Below are positions 2-18,321 of a stretch of 22,642 bases of DNA, one piece after another. Origin of the DNA: Tortispora ganteri (taxonomy: Eukaryota); NCBI GenBank assembly GCA_003707115.1, contig PPNB01000021.1:124001-146642 (forward strand), written 5' to 3'. Numbering within the stretch: the stretch's first letter is position 1; each line of letters opens with the position of its first letter. The translations under genes and the position numbers were made by a program. Below the pieces are notes generated by a model. The model did not search any database and was not told the DNA's origin. It saw only the letters and a program-made list of their open reading frames with translations.

Positions 2-1474
2 GCAGAGCAGACTCCGGATCGCGCAAAGATTTTTATGAAGTGCCGCGTCACATCTATTTTGAAAGAAGGTAACAAAATTATTGGTGTTGAGTATGAAGAT
101 GCTCAAGGTGAGAAGAAACGCGACTACGGCCCCGTTGTCCTTGCCACCGGAGGTTACGCCGCCGATTTCACCGAAACCTCCTTCATCAAAAAATATCGTC
201 CTGAAATTTTTGATTTGCCCTCGACAAACGGCACGCATGCTACTGGTGACGGCCAGAAAATGGTGCTCGCTATTGGCGGCAACGGCGTAGATCTCGAGAA
301 GATCCAGGTTCACCCTACTGGACTTGTCGACCCACGCGATCCCGACAACAAATGGAAGTTTTTGGCCGCTGAGGCCCTACGTGGAGAGGGCGGTTTGCTT
401 TTGAATGGCAATGGAGAGCGCTTCTGTGACGAACTTGGTCGTCGTGACTACGTATCCGGTGAAATGTTCAAAAACAAGTTCCCTATCCGACTCGTCCTCA
501 ACGGCAAGGCATCTAATGTGCTCGACTTCCATACCAAGCACTATGCTGGCCGTGGACTTATGAAGAAAATGACGGGGGAAGAGCTTGCTAAAGATATCGG
601 TATCCCTGCGTCTAAACTCCAAAAGGTATTTGAGGAGTACAACGAGATTGCTGACGGCAAAAAGAAGGATCCCTTCGGCAAGAAGTTCTTCGCAAATGGT
701 CCTGTCACTATTGACGACGACAACTTTTATGTAGCTCTCGTCACGCCTGTACTGCATTTCACAATGGGTGGTGTTGAAATTAATGACAAAGCGGAGGTAC
801 TGAACCACGACAAGGAGCCATTTGAAGGTCTGTTTGCCTGTGGTGAACTCGCAGGTGGTGTACACGGAGCCAACCGTCTTGGTGGATCGTCGCTTTTAGG
901 TTGTGTAGTCTACGGACGTGTTGCAGCTGACTCTGCCAGCAAGTACCTCTTCCAGAAAGTGCTCAAGGAAGATAGCGGTGCTTCTGGCGCTGCTAGCCGT
1001 CTGGGTCAGATCAGTCTGCACATCGATCCGTCGCAGCCCGGTCGCATTGTAGTCGACTGGAGTAATAAAGGCGGCAATGACGACGACAATAATGGCGGAA
1101 ACGCTCCACCTGCTGCCGGCGGTCAAGGCGCGTCGATCGCTTCATCGTCGTCTTCTGGGTCGTCATCCTCTTCGGCCGCTCCACCCGCAGCGAAACCCAA
1201 AGCATTCAGTATCCCCGATAAGGAGTACTCAATGGAAGACGTAGCTAAGCATAATAAGAAAGACGACTGCTGGGTTGTGGTAAAGGGTGTGGTTATGGAC
1301 GTGACTAAGTTCCTTCCTGACCATCCTGGCGGTGAGAATGCTATTGTGAACTTCGCTGGTCGCGACGCCACCGAGGAATTCGAGATGCTGCACGAAGACC
1401 GTGTTATCCCGAAATATGCCGGTTACGCTGTCATCGGCAAGCTTGCAGGATCTGAGCCTTCTCTCGAGCTGTAA
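2..1474 (+). CDS. OSM1: FAD-dependent fumarate reductase (Osm1/Frd1 family) with C-terminal cytochrome b5 heme domain; 5'-truncated by the window edge
   Basis: Frame is open from base 2 (AEQTPDRAKIF-MKCRV). Flavoprotein motifs QVHPTG, EALRGEGG, LHFTMGG and GGVHGANRLGGSSL are present, followed by a G/N/S/A-rich linker and a cytochrome b5 signature (HNKKDDCWVVV, FLPDHPGG, GRDATEEF..LH). Confidence 0.93.
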   Translation, partial: AEQTPDRAKIFMKCRVTSILKEGNKIIGVEYEDAQGEKKRDYGPVVLATGGYAADFTETSFIKKYRPEIFDLPSTNGTHATGDGQKMVLAIGGNGVDLEKIQVHPTGLVDPRDPDNKWKFLAAEALRGEGGLLLNGNGERFCDELGRRDYVSGEMFKNKFPIRLVLNGKASNVLDFHTKHYAGRGLMKKMTGEELAKDIGIPASKLQKVFEEYNEIADGKKKDPFGKKFFANGPVTIDDDNFYVALVTPVLHFTMGGVEINDKAEVLNHDKEPFEGLFACGELAGGVHGANRLGGSSLLGCVVYGRVAADSASKYLFQKVLKEDSGASGAASRLGQISLHIDPSQPGRIVVDWSNKGGNDDDNNGGNAPPAAGGQGASIASSSSSGSSSSSAAPPAAKPKAFSIPDKEYSMEDVAKHNKKDDCWVVVKGVVMDVTKFLPDHPGGENAIVNFAGRDATEEFEMLHEDRVIPKYAGYAVIGKLAGSEPSLEL

Positions 1475-10839: not shown

Positions 10840-13800
10840 TTATACATTAAGACGTTCAAATTCAGCAATCATTTGATGTAGGTTCTCGATTTCAGCATCA
10901 AATTGCTCAATCTTTTTCAAATTACTTTCTTGAACTTCTTTCTTCACTTTCGTCTCGTAATCTTTAACACTGATCGCTTTAACAAGATTAGCTTTACCTT
11001 GTTTCGCCTTCTCAACTTTGTTCTCTGCTTTTTTGATTTCTGCCTCAAAATCAACTTTGCCTTTCACCTCAACAAGCACATTGCAGTCCGCATTCACTGT
11101 ATACACTGCACATCCTTCTGGCTGCGTATCATTTTCACTTAAAACAGTAACAGATTCGCACCATTTCACTAAACTCTGAATGCTCGCAATTTGCTGTTGA
11201 ATAATATTAGCAAGCTTAGTGTCGGTACACTGTACAAATATCCGCACATTACTCAAAATACCAAACTGCGAAACAAGAGATCGACAGCCTTTGACTACTG
11301 ACAAAACAAACTCGTAAGCTTTCTCGGACTCGGGATCAAATAACATCTCGTCGTACTCGGGGTAATCGCTCACAACAATAGACGGTGTATTATCGTCCGG
11401 ACGGCGCGGCAATCGCTGCCATAACTCTTCTGTTATGTACGGCATAAACGGATGGATCATCTTAAGACCAGCATCTAAGGCATTATAAAGCGTATTTCGG
11501 GCAGATTTCTTCTGCTCATCTGTACCATCAAGAATAAGGAATTTGCTGTTCTCAATGTAAACATCACAAAGCTCATACAACCAGTAATTGTAAATAGCAG
11601 TAGTACTTTCCAGGAAATCACGCTCATCGAGTGCAGTAGACATGTTCTTAGCGCAAACAGTAAGTTTATGCAACATCCATCTCTCAACAAGGCTCTCTTG
11701 TCCAGTCAGTTTAATACCGCAAGAAGGAGGAACATACCCTTCTCCAAGGCGCATAAGTGCAAATTTAGACGCCTGGTAGATCTTATTACAGAACTTGCGA
11801 TAACCTTCGACACGTAAAATATCAAGATTGATATCACGACCACCAGTAGTGTATGCACAAAGAGCAAATCTCATCGCATCGGTACCGCACTCCGGAATGC
11901 CTTTAGGAAAACTTAGCTTTTGCCCTTCTTTCGCCTTGGCAATCTCTCGTGAATCTAAATTGCCTTTTGTTAGCTGTTCGCCAAGCGCCTCTAATGAAAT
12001 TCCTTTAATCACATCAAGAGGATCAATTACGTTACCCAAAGACTTCGACATCTTGCGGCCTTGAGCATCACGAACAAGCGAATGGCAGAATACTTCGGTA
12101 AACGGAACTTGACCAGTCATTTTGATCCCCAGCATAACCATTCTGGCAACCCAGAAAAAGAGAATATCCCATCCAGTTTCTAAAACATTCATAGGATAAT
12201 AATCTTTCATATCTGACGTCTCAGAAGGCCAACCGAGAGTGGAAAATGGCCATAAACCTGATGAGAACCACGTATCAAGCACATCTTCATCTTGCGATAA
12301 TGTATATTTATAGGATTTAGCCTCTACAAAATCCTTTTGCACAATCGCATCTGCTTCTTCTATTGAGAACGCAGAAATCCACCATTTGCCGTCATTGGGG
12401 TCCTGGTCAATGCCCTCAAAATCGACAAAGTAAACAGGACATCGGTGTCCCCACCATAGTTGTCGAGAAATGCACCAATCCTGAATATTGGAAAGCCAGT
12501 GGTAAAACTCTTGCTCAGAAGCAGAAGGAGTAATAGTAATTTTGCCAGAACGAACAGCTTCCACTGCAGCATCTGCCATATCCTTTTGGCGAACCCACCA
12601 TTGTGGCTTCATGATAGGCTCAATGACGTCTCCTGATTTAGCACACAAGGGAATACTCATAGCGTTATCTTTCTGCTCAATAAAGAGACCCTTTTGTTTG
12701 AGTTGCTCAATAACGGCAATACGCGCATCAAAGCGCTTCATACCATTCCATTCCGGACCACAAGCGCTGTTAAGAGTACCATCGTCATTCAGAATGTTTA
12801 TAAAGTCCAGATTGTGTCGCTTTCCCGTAGCATAATCGTTAGGGTCGTGTGCGGGTGTGATCTTTACCGCACCAGTACCAAATTCCATGTCTACAGCTTC
12901 AGAATCAGTCACAATAGGAAGTTTGCGGTCAACAAACGGATGCACAACATACTTACCGTGAAGGTGCTTATATCGCGGATCGTCAGGGTGGACAGCTACA
13001 GCAGTATCACCAAAAAGCGTTTCCGGACGGGTGGTGGCAACTATAATCTTTTCGTCTGAGCCCTCGACTGGATAAGCAAACGATGTAATCACACCAAACT
13101 CCACTTTGTCAGTGTACCCCGGCACAGAGATCGCAGTACGGCCAGGGATTTCCTTGTTCTCAACTTCCAGGTTGGAAAGTGCCGTGTTCAAGTGAACACA
13201 CCAATTGACTAGACGATTGGCACGGTAAATGATGCCCTCACGGTGAAGAGAGACGAAACATTCACGGACAGCTTTTGACCGTATATCGTCTAGAGTAAAC
13301 GCTTCGCGGGACCAGTCATAGGAGGCTCCAAGACGTTTAAGCTGGTTTTTTATACGGTCATGGTACTCGTTCTTCCACTCCCAGACAAGATTGGTAAACT
13401 CTTCACGTCCAAGGTCGTGGCGAGTTTTCTTTTCTTTCTTCCATAACATTTTCTCGACCACAGATTGTGTTGAAATACCAGCATGATCAAATCCTGGGAT
13501 GAAGAGAGTCGTTTTGCCCTTCATTCTGTTAAATCGAATCAATGTATCCTGTATAGCGACTGTGAGTGCGTGACCAATATGTAGGGCACCAGTTACATTA
13601 GGTGGTGGCGCCGGAATGACAAATGTACCTTTAGTCGAGGCTGACCCGTCAGGCTGTCTCTTAGGCTCAAAGAAACCTTGAGATTCCCACCAGGCATACC
13701 ACGAAGACTCTACGATCTGCGGATTGTAGGCTTTTAGTGCAGGATGATCCAAACTAGGTAATACTTTCTTCTCACCGGGTACAGTAGGATCAACATATTC

Positions 13801-13983
13801 TGGAACTGGTTCCTGAATTTTCTTGACTTTCTTGCCAGACTTATCGCTCGAATCCTGGCGGGCCTTCTCCGCAGCAGCCTTCTTTGCCTGTTTGGCCTCG
13901 TACGCAGCAAGCTTAGCGGCCTTTTTGCGCTCCTTTTCGAGTTCTTTCTCGGTCTTTTGGCGGGGATTTTCGGTGGATGCCAT
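10840..13983 (-). CDS. VAS1: Valyl-tRNA synthetase (cytosolic form from ATG 13983; possible mitochondrial form from upstream non-AUG start)
   Basis: 1047 aa; PPPNVTGALHIGH (HIGH), KMSKS, ATTRPET, GTGAVKITPAHD and DWCISRQLWWGH motifs. Confidence 0.98.
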   Translation of the reverse strand: MASTENPRQKTEKELEKERKKAAKLAAYEAKQAKKAAAEKARQDSSDKSGKKVKKIQEPVPEYVDPTVPGEKKVLPSLDHPALKAYNPQIVESSWYAWWESQGFFEPKRQPDGSASTKGTFVIPAPPPNVTGALHIGHALTVAIQDTLIRFNRMKGKTTLFIPGFDHAGISTQSVVEKMLWKKEKKTRHDLGREEFTNLVWEWKNEYHDRIKNQLKRLGASYDWSREAFTLDDIRSKAVRECFVSLHREGIIYRANRLVNWCVHLNTALSNLEVENKEIPGRTAISVPGYTDKVEFGVITSFAYPVEGSDEKIIVATTRPETLFGDTAVAVHPDDPRYKHLHGKYVVHPFVDRKLPIVTDSEAVDMEFGTGAVKITPAHDPNDYATGKRHNLDFINILNDDGTLNSACGPEWNGMKRFDARIAVIEQLKQKGLFIEQKDNAMSIPLCAKSGDVIEPIMKPQWWVRQKDMADAAVEAVRSGKITITPSASEQEFYHWLSNIQDWCISRQLWWGHRCPVYFVDFEGIDQDPNDGKWWISAFSIEEADAIVQKDFVEAKSYKYTLSQDEDVLDTWFSSGLWPFSTLGWPSETSDMKDYYPMNVLETGWDILFFWVARMVMLGIKMTGQVPFTEVFCHSLVRDAQGRKMSKSLGNVIDPLDVIKGISLEALGEQLTKGNLDSREIAKAKEGQKLSFPKGIPECGTDAMRFALCAYTTGGRDINLDILRVEGYRKFCNKIYQASKFALMRLGEGYVPPSCGIKLTGQESLVERWMLHKLTVCAKNMSTALDERDFLESTTAIYNYWLYELCDVYIENSKFLILDGTDEQKKSARNTLYNALDAGLKMIHPFMPYITEELWQRLPRRPDDNTPSIVVSDYPEYDEMLFDPESEKAYEFVLSVVKGCRSLVSQFGILSNVRIFVQCTDTKLANIIQQQIASIQSLVKWCESVTVLSENDTQPEGCAVYTVNADCNVLVEVKGKVDFEAEIKKAENKVEKAKQGKANLVKAISVKDYETKVKKEVQESNLKKIEQFDAEIENLHQMIAEFERLNV

Positions 13984-14052
13984 GGAGCGCGTTAAAGGAC
14001 AGATAGGTCTAGAAAGAAGCGTGGGACGGAGGAAATAGCGGATCAGTGTCGT
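13984..14052 (-). other. Putative non-AUG-initiated N-terminal mitochondrial presequence of Vas1
   Basis: In-frame, stop-free and ATG-free: ACG ACA CTG ATC CGC TAT TTC CTC CGT CCC ACG CTT CTT TCT AGA CCT ATC TGT CCT TTA ACG CGC TCC, giving (M)TLIRYFLRPTLLSRPICPLTRS-M. Contains 4 Arg and no acidic residues; ACG is preceded by AAA. Confidence 0.65.
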
Positions 14053-14099
14053 TTTGAAATGAACGCTACAATTATTGCGGTAAAAAAAAAAAAGATTAA

Positions 14100-14123
14100 T
14101 CTATTTAAACGCCTTTAAATAGA
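14100..14123. promoter_or_regulatory. 10-bp inverted repeat with TATA-like TATTTAAA on both strands, upstream of VAS1
   Basis: TCTATTTAAA-CGCC-TTTAAATAGA, about 50 nt upstream of the proposed ACG start. Confidence 0.4.
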
Positions 14124-14376
14124 GCTAAACAGATACCCAGGCAAATTATTACCGGCCTATAGTAGTAGACAGTCGTAAGTAAGAAGGATGAGTTTGCAGG
14201 AGAGGGAAAAAGCTAAATAAAAAAATGAGTCCCTGGTTGCGAGAGGAGTCATAGCTGATTTGGCAGGGTAAATAGCGATCGGACCAGCAAACAGACAGAT
14301 AAATGAATAAATGGAAGATGCCACTTAAAAAAAAAAGAAAAAAAAAAGATGATCATAGTCATAGTCTAGTAAATGA

Positions 14377-15393
14377 TTACTCAGCAGTCGCAGAGACAGA
14401 AGTAGCCTGCTCCTGTTCGACAACAGGGCGGAAGTAAGGGTGAGCCATGCTTTCTTTCGCAGTGAGCCTTTCCTGGTGGTCGTAACGAAGCAAGTGATCC
14501 AGGAAGTCTATGGCTTCAGGTGAAATGTAGCGCTCGTTATCAGCATTGACAAATTTCGACCAAGGCTTGCGCGGTGCGTTACCGACGATTTCGTGAGACT
14601 CGCGCTCGAGTTCAATGTCGTACTTGTTGAGGTACTGAACGAGCCCGTCGGTACCCAACACGCGGGCGATCTTTACGAGCTGGTCTGTATTAGAAGAGCC
14701 ATGAAAAAAGGGGTCTTTTCGGAAAATCATTGAAGCGAACATAGCACCGAGCGACCACATATCGATAGAGTAATCATATTCCTGGAAATCGACGAGCAAT
14801 TCTGGTCCTTTGAAGTAGCGTGAGGCGACGCGGACGTTATACTCGGTTCCCGGATGGTAGAATTCCGCTAGACCCCAGTCGATTAATCTGAGTTTCCTGT
14901 TTTTATGATCGATCATTACATTATGAGGTTTGACGTCTCTGTGCATGATTCCGCGGGAGTGGCAGAAATCTAGCGCTTTCAGGACTTCAAAGATGTAGAA
15001 CCGTACCTCATAGTCAGAGAGAGTAGGATAAAGAACACGGAAATCAACATTATCGACATACTCAAATATCAAGCTGGGTGTTTTAGAGACATTATCGCGA
15101 ACCACATCTAGAAGAGCAATAATATTAGGTCCGCCGGATAAATTTTGAAGAATTTTGATCTCGCGCTTGATTTTCTTCTTCTTTACGGGTTTGAGCACTT
15201 TAACGACACATCTACTATGGCTCAAAATGTTTACTCCTTCAAATACTTCTGAATATTTGCCTCTTCCAATCCGTTTAACGACTTCGTAGTTGTCTACTGA
15301 GCCCCAAGATACTGTAAACCCGTCATAATCCCAGTAGGATCGCGGCATCTTGGAGTTCACATCTGCATAAACCCGTGCAATTGACCCTTTCAT
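14377..15393 (-). CDS. CKA1: Casein kinase II catalytic alpha subunit
   Basis: [46 protein letters not shown] and [16 protein letters not shown]1 versus CKA2 orthology cannot be resolved by eye. Confidence 0.97.
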
Positions 15394-15619
15394 TTTCCAG
15401 CTGTAATTTCAAGCAAAAAAAAAACTAAGTCAGAAAAAAGATATAAGTCCCCGACTTTTCTCGCGTGCTCAGTTGCTAAAACTGAGCTCCGTTTAGTCTT
15501 GCTAGTGTGGAAGTAGCGTCTAAGTGGCTTTTGGGCCACTTACTACTTTCTTTTCCAACACTCGTTCAACAGTATCTCGCATAGCAACCATCCTTTTCTT
15601 ACTTCATAACCAAACAACA

Positions 15620-16402
15620 ATGGCCGCTTTCTGCGATCTATGCGTTCCCTGGACAGAACGGCATCGCACTCTACATGTGGTCAGAATGCTAGTGGATCTC
15701 GGATATACAACAATTGCCCTCAACTACACACTTATAGACAATATCGTCTCTGCTACCTGCCCTATCCCCGAGTCTCCGTTCCCTGAGTTCAAGCATATCA
15801 CTTTTCTTCGAAGGCTCACTATTAATATTGATACTCCATCAATTACCAACAATGTAATGCAGTTTATGAAACTCTTTGACATAGTCGCCGTGCGACCGAT
15901 GTCCGAGAAGTCTTTTCAGAACGCCTGTATGGCGCTAGATATCGACATCATATCTTTCGATCCTACTGCCAGACTACCCTTGATCCCGAAACATGCGACT
16001 GTCGCAGCAGCTATAAACAGAGGTGTTTACTTTGAAATATGCTACGGTGCCGGTGTCGGCAATCGCCGCTCCCGCACGCAAACAATAACTAATGCAACTA
16101 CAATAATACGCATTGCACGGTCCAGAGGTCTTATAGTTTCCAGTGATGCAGATGTCGCGGTCGCTTGCCGCTCGCCGCACGACGTGATTAACCTGCTCTG
16201 TGTGTGGGGGTTGGACCACATGCGCGCACGAGAAGCCATTCAAAGAAACCCTTGTCTAGCGGCCAAATCTGGCACGCTCAGGCACACTTCTCATAAACAA
16301 GCCGTGCAGCTAGTTGCCCCTTCAAAGAGACAGGTAAGCGATAAACAAGAGGAAGACAAAATAGATATTTCAGGGTCTGCAAAGAGAAAAAAAACTAGTT
16401 AG
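15620..16402 (+). CDS. RPP1: RNase P/MRP subunit p30
   Basis: The first ATG (AACAATG) gives MAAFCDL. LGYTTIALN, LRRLTI, FDIVAVRP, DIDIISFD, RGVYFEICY, LIVSSDA and RSPHDVINL..VWGL are Rpp1/Rpp30 motifs. Confidence 0.92.
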   Translation: MAAFCDLCVPWTERHRTLHVVRMLVDLGYTTIALNYTLIDNIVSATCPIPESPFPEFKHITFLRRLTINIDTPSITNNVMQFMKLFDIVAVRPMSEKSFQNACMALDIDIISFDPTARLPLIPKHATVAAAINRGVYFEICYGAGVGNRRSRTQTITNATTIIRIARSRGLIVSSDADVAVACRSPHDVINLLCVWGLDHMRAREAIQRNPCLAAKSGTLRHTSHKQAVQLVAPSKRQVSDKQEEDKIDISGSAKRKKTS

Positions 16403-17652: not shown

Positions 17653-18321
17653 CTACCCATATGGCGCTTGATGCACGGGACAGGGACCGAAAGGTATAAT
17701 GACAGACTCAGCAGCTATTTTGCAAGAGAGACTTGTACATTGGATATCCATTGGCATGCATGAGAGTGGCGTGGAGTCGCTGTCGGCGACAGCGATCGAG
17801 ACATGAAACTTGGTGTGATCGACCTGGTAGGCTTGTGTGATACCATGACGGTGTAGTGACACCAAAAGATTCTGGAGTAGTACAATGTCACAGCGACGAT
17901 CAATAGGCAAACAACAAAAGTACTTTTTGTGCGATTCATTAGGTAGCCATTGTGTGGTGGCTGCGGTTTGGACGGCGAACGGATCAACGCCGACAAGAGC
18001 GGCCTTGATAGAGGCTATGAATGTGTCCTTGGAGATTCGGGGAATGAAAAATGTCAGCGATAGGCTGATATGCAGGGGCAAGTATACACCAAGATCATTT
18101 GCTACTAGAGATACAGGTGGGGCGATAGATCGCAGGTACGCGTACTGTGTTTTGGTAGGGACCCACTGGATGGAGAGATGTACCGGGAGCATACCTTGTT
18201 GGTGGGGGTGAACGCGATCTTCTGGTACAAATGATTTCTTGCTGAAAAGCAATTGAATTCTTTCTGGAATAGATACTACAGGATCATCATTATCATCTGA
18301 ATCGTAGTGGACTAGAGGCAT
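17653..18321 (-). CDS. USB1: U6 snRNA 2H phosphodiesterase Usb1/Mpn1
   Basis: N-terminal MPLVHYDSDD, R..PH.QG...H, and two 2H motifs, PLHISLS and KFHVSIA. Confidence 0.88.
   Translation of the reverse strand: MPLVHYDSDDNDDPVVSIPERIQLLFSKKSFVPEDRVHPHQQGMLPVHLSIQWVPTKTQYAYLRSIAPPVSLVANDLGVYLPLHISLSLTFFIPRISKDTFIASIKAALVGVDPFAVQTAATTQWLPNESHKKYFCCLPIDRRCDIVLLQNLLVSLHRHGITQAYQVDHTKFHVSIAVADSDSTPLSCMPMDIQCTSLSCKIAAESVIIPFGPCPVHQAPYG

Follow-up and report, generated by a model that had tools for sequence, protein, structure and literature searches.

In Saccharomyces cerevisiae, the available portions of the literature describe the mitochondrial forms made from the aminoacyl-tRNA synthetase (aaRS) genes ALA1 and GRS1 as products of non-AUG starts, at tandem ACG codons in the former and at UUG in the latter (PMC2909995, PMC6582344). 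The accessible text also reports that the most favourable yeast context for such a start has AAR before the codon ("AARuug"), and that in an ALA1 reporter ACG, CTG, TTG and ATT each reached about 50% of ATG activity (PMC2909995). The same source describes S. cerevisiae VAS1 as making mitochondrial and cytosolic valyl-tRNA synthetase (ValRS) from two in-frame AUGs. These were the known cases invoked by the original prediction for the locus studied here, and its account of them (two AUGs for VAS1, ACG for ALA1, UUG for GRS1) agrees with the accessible parts of both papers (PMC2909995, PMC6582344).

In tomato, initiation-site profiling placed an upstream ACG start on the ValRS gene Solyc09g007540; the ACG-started extension sends GFP to mitochondria, and mutation of the ACG leaves the reporter cytosolic (PMC7605272, from the available text). 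In Cryptococcus, ribosome profiling identified near-cognate mitochondrial isoforms of LeuRS (ACG/AUU) and ArgRS (AUU), and Wallace et al. describe, in the portion of that paper at hand, how weak AUG and near-cognate starts have replaced one another many times in fungal aaRS genes (PMC7049704). In the literature searched, mostly titles and the openings of abstracts, we found no report of a non-AUG-started ValRS in a fungus.

The window analysed here, a stretch of 22,642 nt, carries on its minus strand an ORF (10840..13983; ATG at 13983-13981) for a protein of 1047 aa, the cytosolic form of the enzyme. Judged by its sequence, this ORF is a class I valyl-tRNA synthetase and the orthologue of VAS1. 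Its Pfam matches were tRNA-synt_1 (E = 4.7e-159) and Anticodon_1 (E = 1.7e-28). Over residues 1-400, the protein was 96% identical to the ValRS of T. caseinolytica NRRL Y-17796, which is of equal length and is annotated from the same first Met (P0001; MASTEQPRQK...), and 70-80% identical to other budding-yeast ValRS proteins; the resemblance to fungal ValRS takes in the lysine-rich appended domain at the N-terminus. The yeast that the window belongs to is thus closely related to T. caseinolytica. Fellow genes in the window encode Hsp70, TAF2, a CK2 alpha-like kinase, the RNase P p30 subunit and ADE5,7, a gene content that fits a yeast chromosome.

The upstream neighbour of VAS1 is the casein kinase II alpha-like kinase gene (14377..15393, minus; Pkinase E = 2.5e-62). 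Both genes lie on the same strand, and the kinase stop at 14377 leaves a spacer of 393 bp before the VAS1 ATG, so that the VAS1 promoter can measure at most about 390 bp. Elsewhere in the window, the RNase P p30 ORF (+) and a CDP-alcohol phosphatidyltransferase ORF (-) converge with an 8-nt overlap at 16395-16402. The ATG of the transferase, at 17660, in turn overlaps the end of a same-strand USB1-like (HVSL) ORF by 8 nt (17653-17660), and the true start of the transferase may lie at a later ATG. At 2-1474 (+) we noted an ORF that is open at the 5' end of the window and combines an FAD_binding_2 domain (fumarate-reductase-like) with a C-terminal cytochrome b5 domain.

Upstream of ATG 13983, the VAS1 frame continues through 39 sense codons (14100-13984), none of them ATG, to an in-frame TAG (14101..14103, minus). 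The translation of this extension is INLFFFYRNNCSVHFKTTLIRYFLRPTLLSRPICPLTRS, followed by MASTE. An ATG-less frame of 39 codons closed by the TAG at 14103-14101 is what the original prediction had described, and its coordinates proved correct on the minus strand. The likeliest near-cognate start is an ACG at codon -23 relative to the ATG (14050..14052, minus), in the context ttcAAA-ACG-aca, which is favourable because AAA-ACG fits AAR. The alternative is a CTG at codon -21 (14044..14046, minus; context acgaca-CTG, with A at -3), directly followed by ATC (14043-14041). Both contexts, AAA-ACG at 14052 and ACA-CTG at 14046, are as they had been predicted. The remaining in-frame near-cognates are ATT 14100, ATC 14043, ACG 14022, ATC 14004 and ACG 13992.

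The 22 codons between ACG and ATG (13984..14049, minus) encode TLIRYFLRPTLLSRPICPLTRS, a candidate presequence by its composition and hydrophobic moment. The peptide has four Arg, five Ser/Thr, three Pro and no Asp/Glu, and an Arg stands at -2 from the cytosolic Met, a position at which Arg is linked to the processing peptidase. It matches the anticipated acid-free, Arg-bearing peptide ending in R-S before that Met. Out of frame, the last 23 codons run into stops, two in one frame and one in the other. Farther upstream, the 16 open codons that encode INLFFFYRNNCSVHFK (14053..14100, minus) have a GC content of 0.25-0.35 and a noncoding-like codon score, and a run of 12 T (14082-14093) lies inside the first 17 open codons; the segment 14053..14100 is probably leader or promoter rather than coding.

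Set beside the described systems, the locus resembles ALA1 and GRS1 in that one gene would provide an AUG-started cytosolic form and a mitochondrial form from an upstream near-cognate codon, with a short extension (about 23-25 codons) and an A-rich context from -3 to -1. It differs from both in the enzyme, which here is ValRS, and its one ACG has a CTG and an ATC after it, as opposed to the tandem ACGs of ALA1. Tomato ValRS shares both the enzyme and the codon type, but it is a plant gene of independent origin, documented by profiling and reporters, whereas the yeast case, also in comparison with ALA1, is a prediction from sequence. S. cerevisiae VAS1 is the orthologous gene and has its presequence at the same site, directly before the cytosolic Met; unlike it, the gene in the window lacks an upstream in-frame AUG, and its extension has 22 residues compared with 46 in Saccharomyces. 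The Cryptococcus LeuRS and ArgRS genes are likewise fungal aaRS genes with a near-cognate-started presequence, but they encode other enzymes in another phylum, and Cryptococcus ValRS uses two AUGs.

Could the extension be nothing but a chance open frame in a pyrimidine-rich leader or core promoter? Mitochondrial ValRS would then have a nuclear gene of its own, which could be an old paralogue, as in Schizosaccharomyces pombe, or a lineage-specific duplicate. We consider this combination rather unlikely, and the character of the encoded peptide is one of the points that bear on it. As a reference set, we used the segments that precede the conserved cytosolic Met in the 120 best homologues. In 38 of these proteins the segment was at least 12 residues long; leaving out near-duplicates as well as P0021 and P0054 (no ATG start, or cut) gave 25 AUG-started ValRS presequences. 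These 25 were contrasted with translated intergenic DNA in a home-made composition log-odds score.

With a score of 3.85, TLIRYFLRPTLLSRPICPLTRS falls in the upper third of the real ValRS presequences, whose leave-one-out median was 2.18 and of which 8/25 scored higher (leave-one-out). Its 11-residue hydrophobic moment, 0.72, is at the upper end of the range of the real set (0.30-0.82). An Arg among the last four residues before the cytosolic Met, as seen here at -2, was present in 17 of the 25 real presequences. The segments IRYFL and LIRYF both match the hydrophobic-x-x-hydrophobic-hydrophobic pattern that is linked to Tom20. Two features count against a presequence: the peptide is short, and it contains three prolines.

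How often such a peptide would arise by chance was estimated with three nulls. The empirical one was made up of 22-codon windows in the 2.7 kb of intergenic DNA of the window; among the open ones, 3 of 1034-1055 scored at least 3.85, and 7 of 1055 combined the absence of acidic residues with at least four Arg. In Markov simulations, 1.7% of the open windows matched the score and 1.6% matched the acid-free, Arg-rich composition (at least four Arg), a proportion that fell to 0.27% once the hydrophobic moment of 0.72 was added. The rarity of this character against the window-wide nulls (0.3-1.7%) argues against a chance frame. The harshest null, in which the 66 nt themselves are shuffled, credits the pyrimidine-rich composition to chance, and gave a joint p of 0.010 for an open frame without acidic residues and with at least four Arg, and of 0.038 for an open frame with the observed score.

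An open 22-codon frame occurred in 27% of the intergenic windows, in 21% of the Markov simulations and in 63% of the shuffles of the stretch itself. The open frame by itself is unremarkable, and the unusual part is the character of the peptide. That nearly two thirds of the composition-keeping shuffles stay open, with a joint p for the score of only 0.038, speaks for the chance-frame explanation. So does RPP1. Among 13 genes of the window, the longest open upstream extensions were those of VAS1 (39 codons), RPP1 (32 codons) and the CDP-OH transferase (18 codons). RPP1 (RNase P p30, 15620-16402) served as the control gene, not being expected in mitochondria, and its extension, VAFGPLTTFFSNTRSTVSRIATILFLLHNQTT (15524-15619, +), was taken as chance. 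This extension is open over 32 codons, ATG-less and acid-free, with a score of 2.22, so look-alikes do occur by chance.

Codon usage was also assessed. The last 22 codons of the VAS1 extension scored +1.92 in frame and -8.07 and -2.60 in the two other frames. The in-frame value is above the intergenic mean (-2.42) and below the coding mean (6.95); it was reached by 15% of the open intergenic windows, and 11% of the true coding windows were at or below it. Codon usage is thus not clearly coding, a further point in favour of a chance frame. The first 17 open codons (14100-14050) scored -5.87, a noncoding-like value.

Base composition changes sharply within the extension: GC is 0.47-0.55 across 13970-14059, as in the coding sequence, and 0.25-0.28 across 14060-14149, and the step falls at ACG 14052. 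The 69 nt before the VAS1 ATG have an A content of 0.16, the lowest among 13 window genes, and the base at -3 of this ATG is T, where 9 of the 13 genes have a purine. The low A content and the T at -3 fit coding constraint better than an ordinary leader. A point against a non-AUG start is that we found no hairpin downstream of the ACG (MFE -5.4 kcal/mol, z = +1.04).

Two putative TATA-like elements, TATTTAAA (14121-14114) and TTTAAATA (14109-14102), both based on the TATA consensus, were read in the region 14102..14121 (minus), 57-69 nt upstream of the ACG. Because no more than 30-70 nt separate these elements and the 12-T tract from the ACG, VAS1 transcripts would have a short leader, and a large share of them, or even all, could start downstream of 14052. 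By the same placement of the TATA-like elements, start sites both upstream and downstream of 14052 are conceivable.

An AUG-started presequence might be present but hidden, either in a spliced upstream exon or behind a base-call error or strain-specific T-to-C change that turned ATG 14052 into ACG. This explanation has some appeal, in that a single transition separates ACG from ATG and the resulting M-T-L-I-R-Y-F-L-R would be a typical presequence start. As for ALTERNATIVES at the locus, however, the 393-bp spacer holds three ATGs (14362, 14356 and 14252), all of them out of frame, and the same-strand upstream gene ends just 393 bp away. Between 14420 and 13901, we found no 5' splice site of the forms GTAWGT, GTRNGT, GTAAG, GTATG or GTGAG, and no branch-point motif TACTAAC or CTAAC. 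Lacking splice signals, and with every upstream ATG out of frame, a spliced AUG-bearing upstream exon was rejected as very unlikely.

A base-call error at the ACG is also unlikely, because the ValRS of the sister species T. caseinolytica, equal in length, is likewise annotated from the downstream Met, although this argument is limited by the fact that annotators sometimes skip an upstream ATG (as in Candida maltosa, P0096 vs P0098). Taken as a whole, a hidden AUG is the least probable of the explanations we considered, and highly improbable. The ACG at 14052 may nevertheless descend from an ATG. The out-of-frame ATG at 14252 opens a 31-codon ORF, MTPLATRDSFFYLAFSLSCKLILLTYDCLLL (14157..14252, minus), within the spacer that separates VAS1 from the CK2 alpha-like gene. 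Being out of frame, this ORF is unable to supply the presequence, and it would act as an upstream ORF only if VAS1 transcripts started unusually far upstream.

The number of ValRS genes bears on whether the mitochondrial enzyme has a gene of its own. The accessible parts of the relevant papers attribute two ValRS genes to S. pombe, which lends that arrangement some credit, but they present S. pombe as the exception, the other fungi examined having a single dual-localised ValRS gene (PMC7049704, PMC3245939). The separate mitochondrial gene of S. pombe represents a rival architecture for the same supply problem. Parsimony would place the loss of the old paralogue ahead of the origin of budding yeasts. 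A lineage-specific duplicate is disfavoured by the 120 best matches to residues 1-400, each with an identity of 62% or more, among which there was just one T. caseinolytica protein; T. caseinolytica therefore seems to be without a close duplicate bearing the N-terminal domain.

A diverged ValRS clade around P0135 was considered as a probe for a fungal mitochondrial-type enzyme and was set aside, being judged metazoan. It came from a ValRS tree of 125 sequences, namely 119 of the 150 best representatives (850-1150 aa; 31 were left out for length) and six named references. The N-terminus of P0135 presumably belongs to a vertebrate VARS2, and the one member of its clade that was checked, P0249, was nearest to an arthropod-dominated "mitochondrial ValRS" cluster.

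There is also the possibility that the stretch upstream of the ATG is untranslated, in which case the ATG-started ValRS would enter mitochondria by a cryptic internal signal or by piggy-back import, or mitochondria would import charged tRNA-Val. Translation upstream of the ATG is something that we only infer, which favours this explanation, as does the import of aaRSs without a transit sequence reported for plants (PMC8067559, from the available text). The N-terminus of the ATG-started form, MASTENPRQKTEKELEKERKK..., is however rich in acidic and Lys residues and not presequence-like, and 25 non-redundant relatives place a presequence exactly here, directly before the cytosolic Met. Such a route is, in our estimate, quite improbable, though less so than a hidden AUG.

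We come back, then, to a non-AUG-started presequence, and ask how ValRS is annotated in other yeasts. Among the 120 best matches, an AUG presequence on ValRS was seen in most Saccharomycetaceae and CUG-clade species. In all 16 named species that we take to be early-branching yeasts, by contrast, the annotated ValRS begins at the cytosolic Met and lacks a presequence; the 16 comprise Tortispora, four Lipomyces, Kockiozyma, Limtongia and two Dipodascopsis species, together with Yarrowia, two Geotrichum species, Blastobotrys, Sugiyamaella, Trichomonascus and Nadsonia. Kazachstania africana, Naumovozyma castellii, Naumovozyma dairenensis and Maudiozyma humilis also have no annotated presequence. 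Annotation alone is no proof, since Candida maltosa ValRS appears once with a presequence (P0098) and once without (P0096). It is a tentative idea, and perhaps a doubtful one, that an ATG-less start is a widespread and unannotated route to mitochondrial ValRS in budding yeasts, as opposed to an oddity of Tortispora.

Some individual sequences deserve mention in this connection. P0021, a yeast ValRS from a JGI source, has a gene model that starts with V, and its cytosolic Met is preceded by a presequence-like segment of 15 residues, VLRQVYLNRGIRYRT; the end of this segment resembles the end of the AUG-started P0089 presequence (…ARGLRRYAT). Either the true start of P0021 lies further upstream, or it is another ATG-less case. 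A metagenome scan, with an alignment of 14 ValRS N-terminal domains as the query, matched 10 ValRS loci at 43-64% identity, all from lineages other than Tortispora, and the P0021 contig was not among these 10. L001 is a yeast with an AUG presequence, L002-L005 are filamentous-fungus-like with AUG presequences, and L007-L010 belong to other lineages. At L006 (1549-1821), on a fungal metagenome contig, the open frame of ValRS extends beyond the Met in the upstream direction (…LVRSARASCVHSPLPEQLIA, then MASNS); the 20 open upstream codons shown hold no ATG, and the segment has one Glu. A search for short N-terminal ValRS fragments that could bear the extension gave five matches, none from a close relative.

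Our preferred explanation, which we hold with some confidence but well short of certainty, is that a single VAS1-type gene of this Tortispora-like yeast would serve both the cytosol and the mitochondria, the mitochondrial form arising from a non-AUG start. Most ribosomes would pass over the upstream codons, which are weak, and initiate at ATG 13983, yielding the cytosolic enzyme. A minority would initiate at ACG 14052, with CTG 14046 or ATC 14043 as alternatives, and decode that codon as Met, to give a precursor of 1070 residues with about 22 extra residues, (M)TLIRYFLRPTLLSRPICPLTRS. The predicted presequence TLIRYFLRPTLLSRPICPLTRS would direct mitochondrial import and be removed close to the R-S|M junction. 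Transcripts starting downstream of 14052 would encode the cytosolic form only, and the two forms may owe something to transcripts of different lengths, on the pattern of S. cerevisiae VAS1, whose long and short transcripts were reportedly described by Chatton et al. in 1988.

This proposal is in essence that of the original prediction, in which mitochondrial ValRS was made by leaky non-AUG initiation. The sequence-level expectations tested were all borne out, including the open frame, the presequence-like composition, the hydrophobic moment, the Arg at -2, the AAR context and the GC step at the ACG; the leaky start and its mitochondrial product stand as a probable, partly supported reading of them. 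In adopting this reading, we infer that the mRNA reaches back over the ACG, that ribosomes initiate at this codon, that the encoded peptide drives import and that VAS1 is the sole ValRS gene.

The mechanism itself is not new. It is already established in other aaRS genes, and the novelty of the present case is lowered by the tomato precedent, where an ACG-started mitochondrial ValRS has been shown; the candidate described here is probably a further fungal case. If the proposal is true, it would fill an annotation gap, given that translation in mitochondria depends on a ValRS, which the ATG-based gene models do not show. ValRS would join the fungal aaRS genes with near-cognate starts, and the locus would be a further example of the repeated switches from one of these kinds of start, weak AUG or near-cognate, to the other that the available text of Wallace et al. 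describes (PMC7049704).

In practical terms, one should look for ATG-less presequences on the dual-localised enzymes of non-model yeasts. Should the ValRS genes of the other yeasts annotated from the cytosolic Met also be without an in-frame upstream ATG, the near-cognate ValRS start would be either an ancestral trait of the subphylum or one that has arisen in it repeatedly, and, if the ATG-less route is indeed widespread, hundreds of yeast annotations would lack the mitochondrial ValRS isoform.
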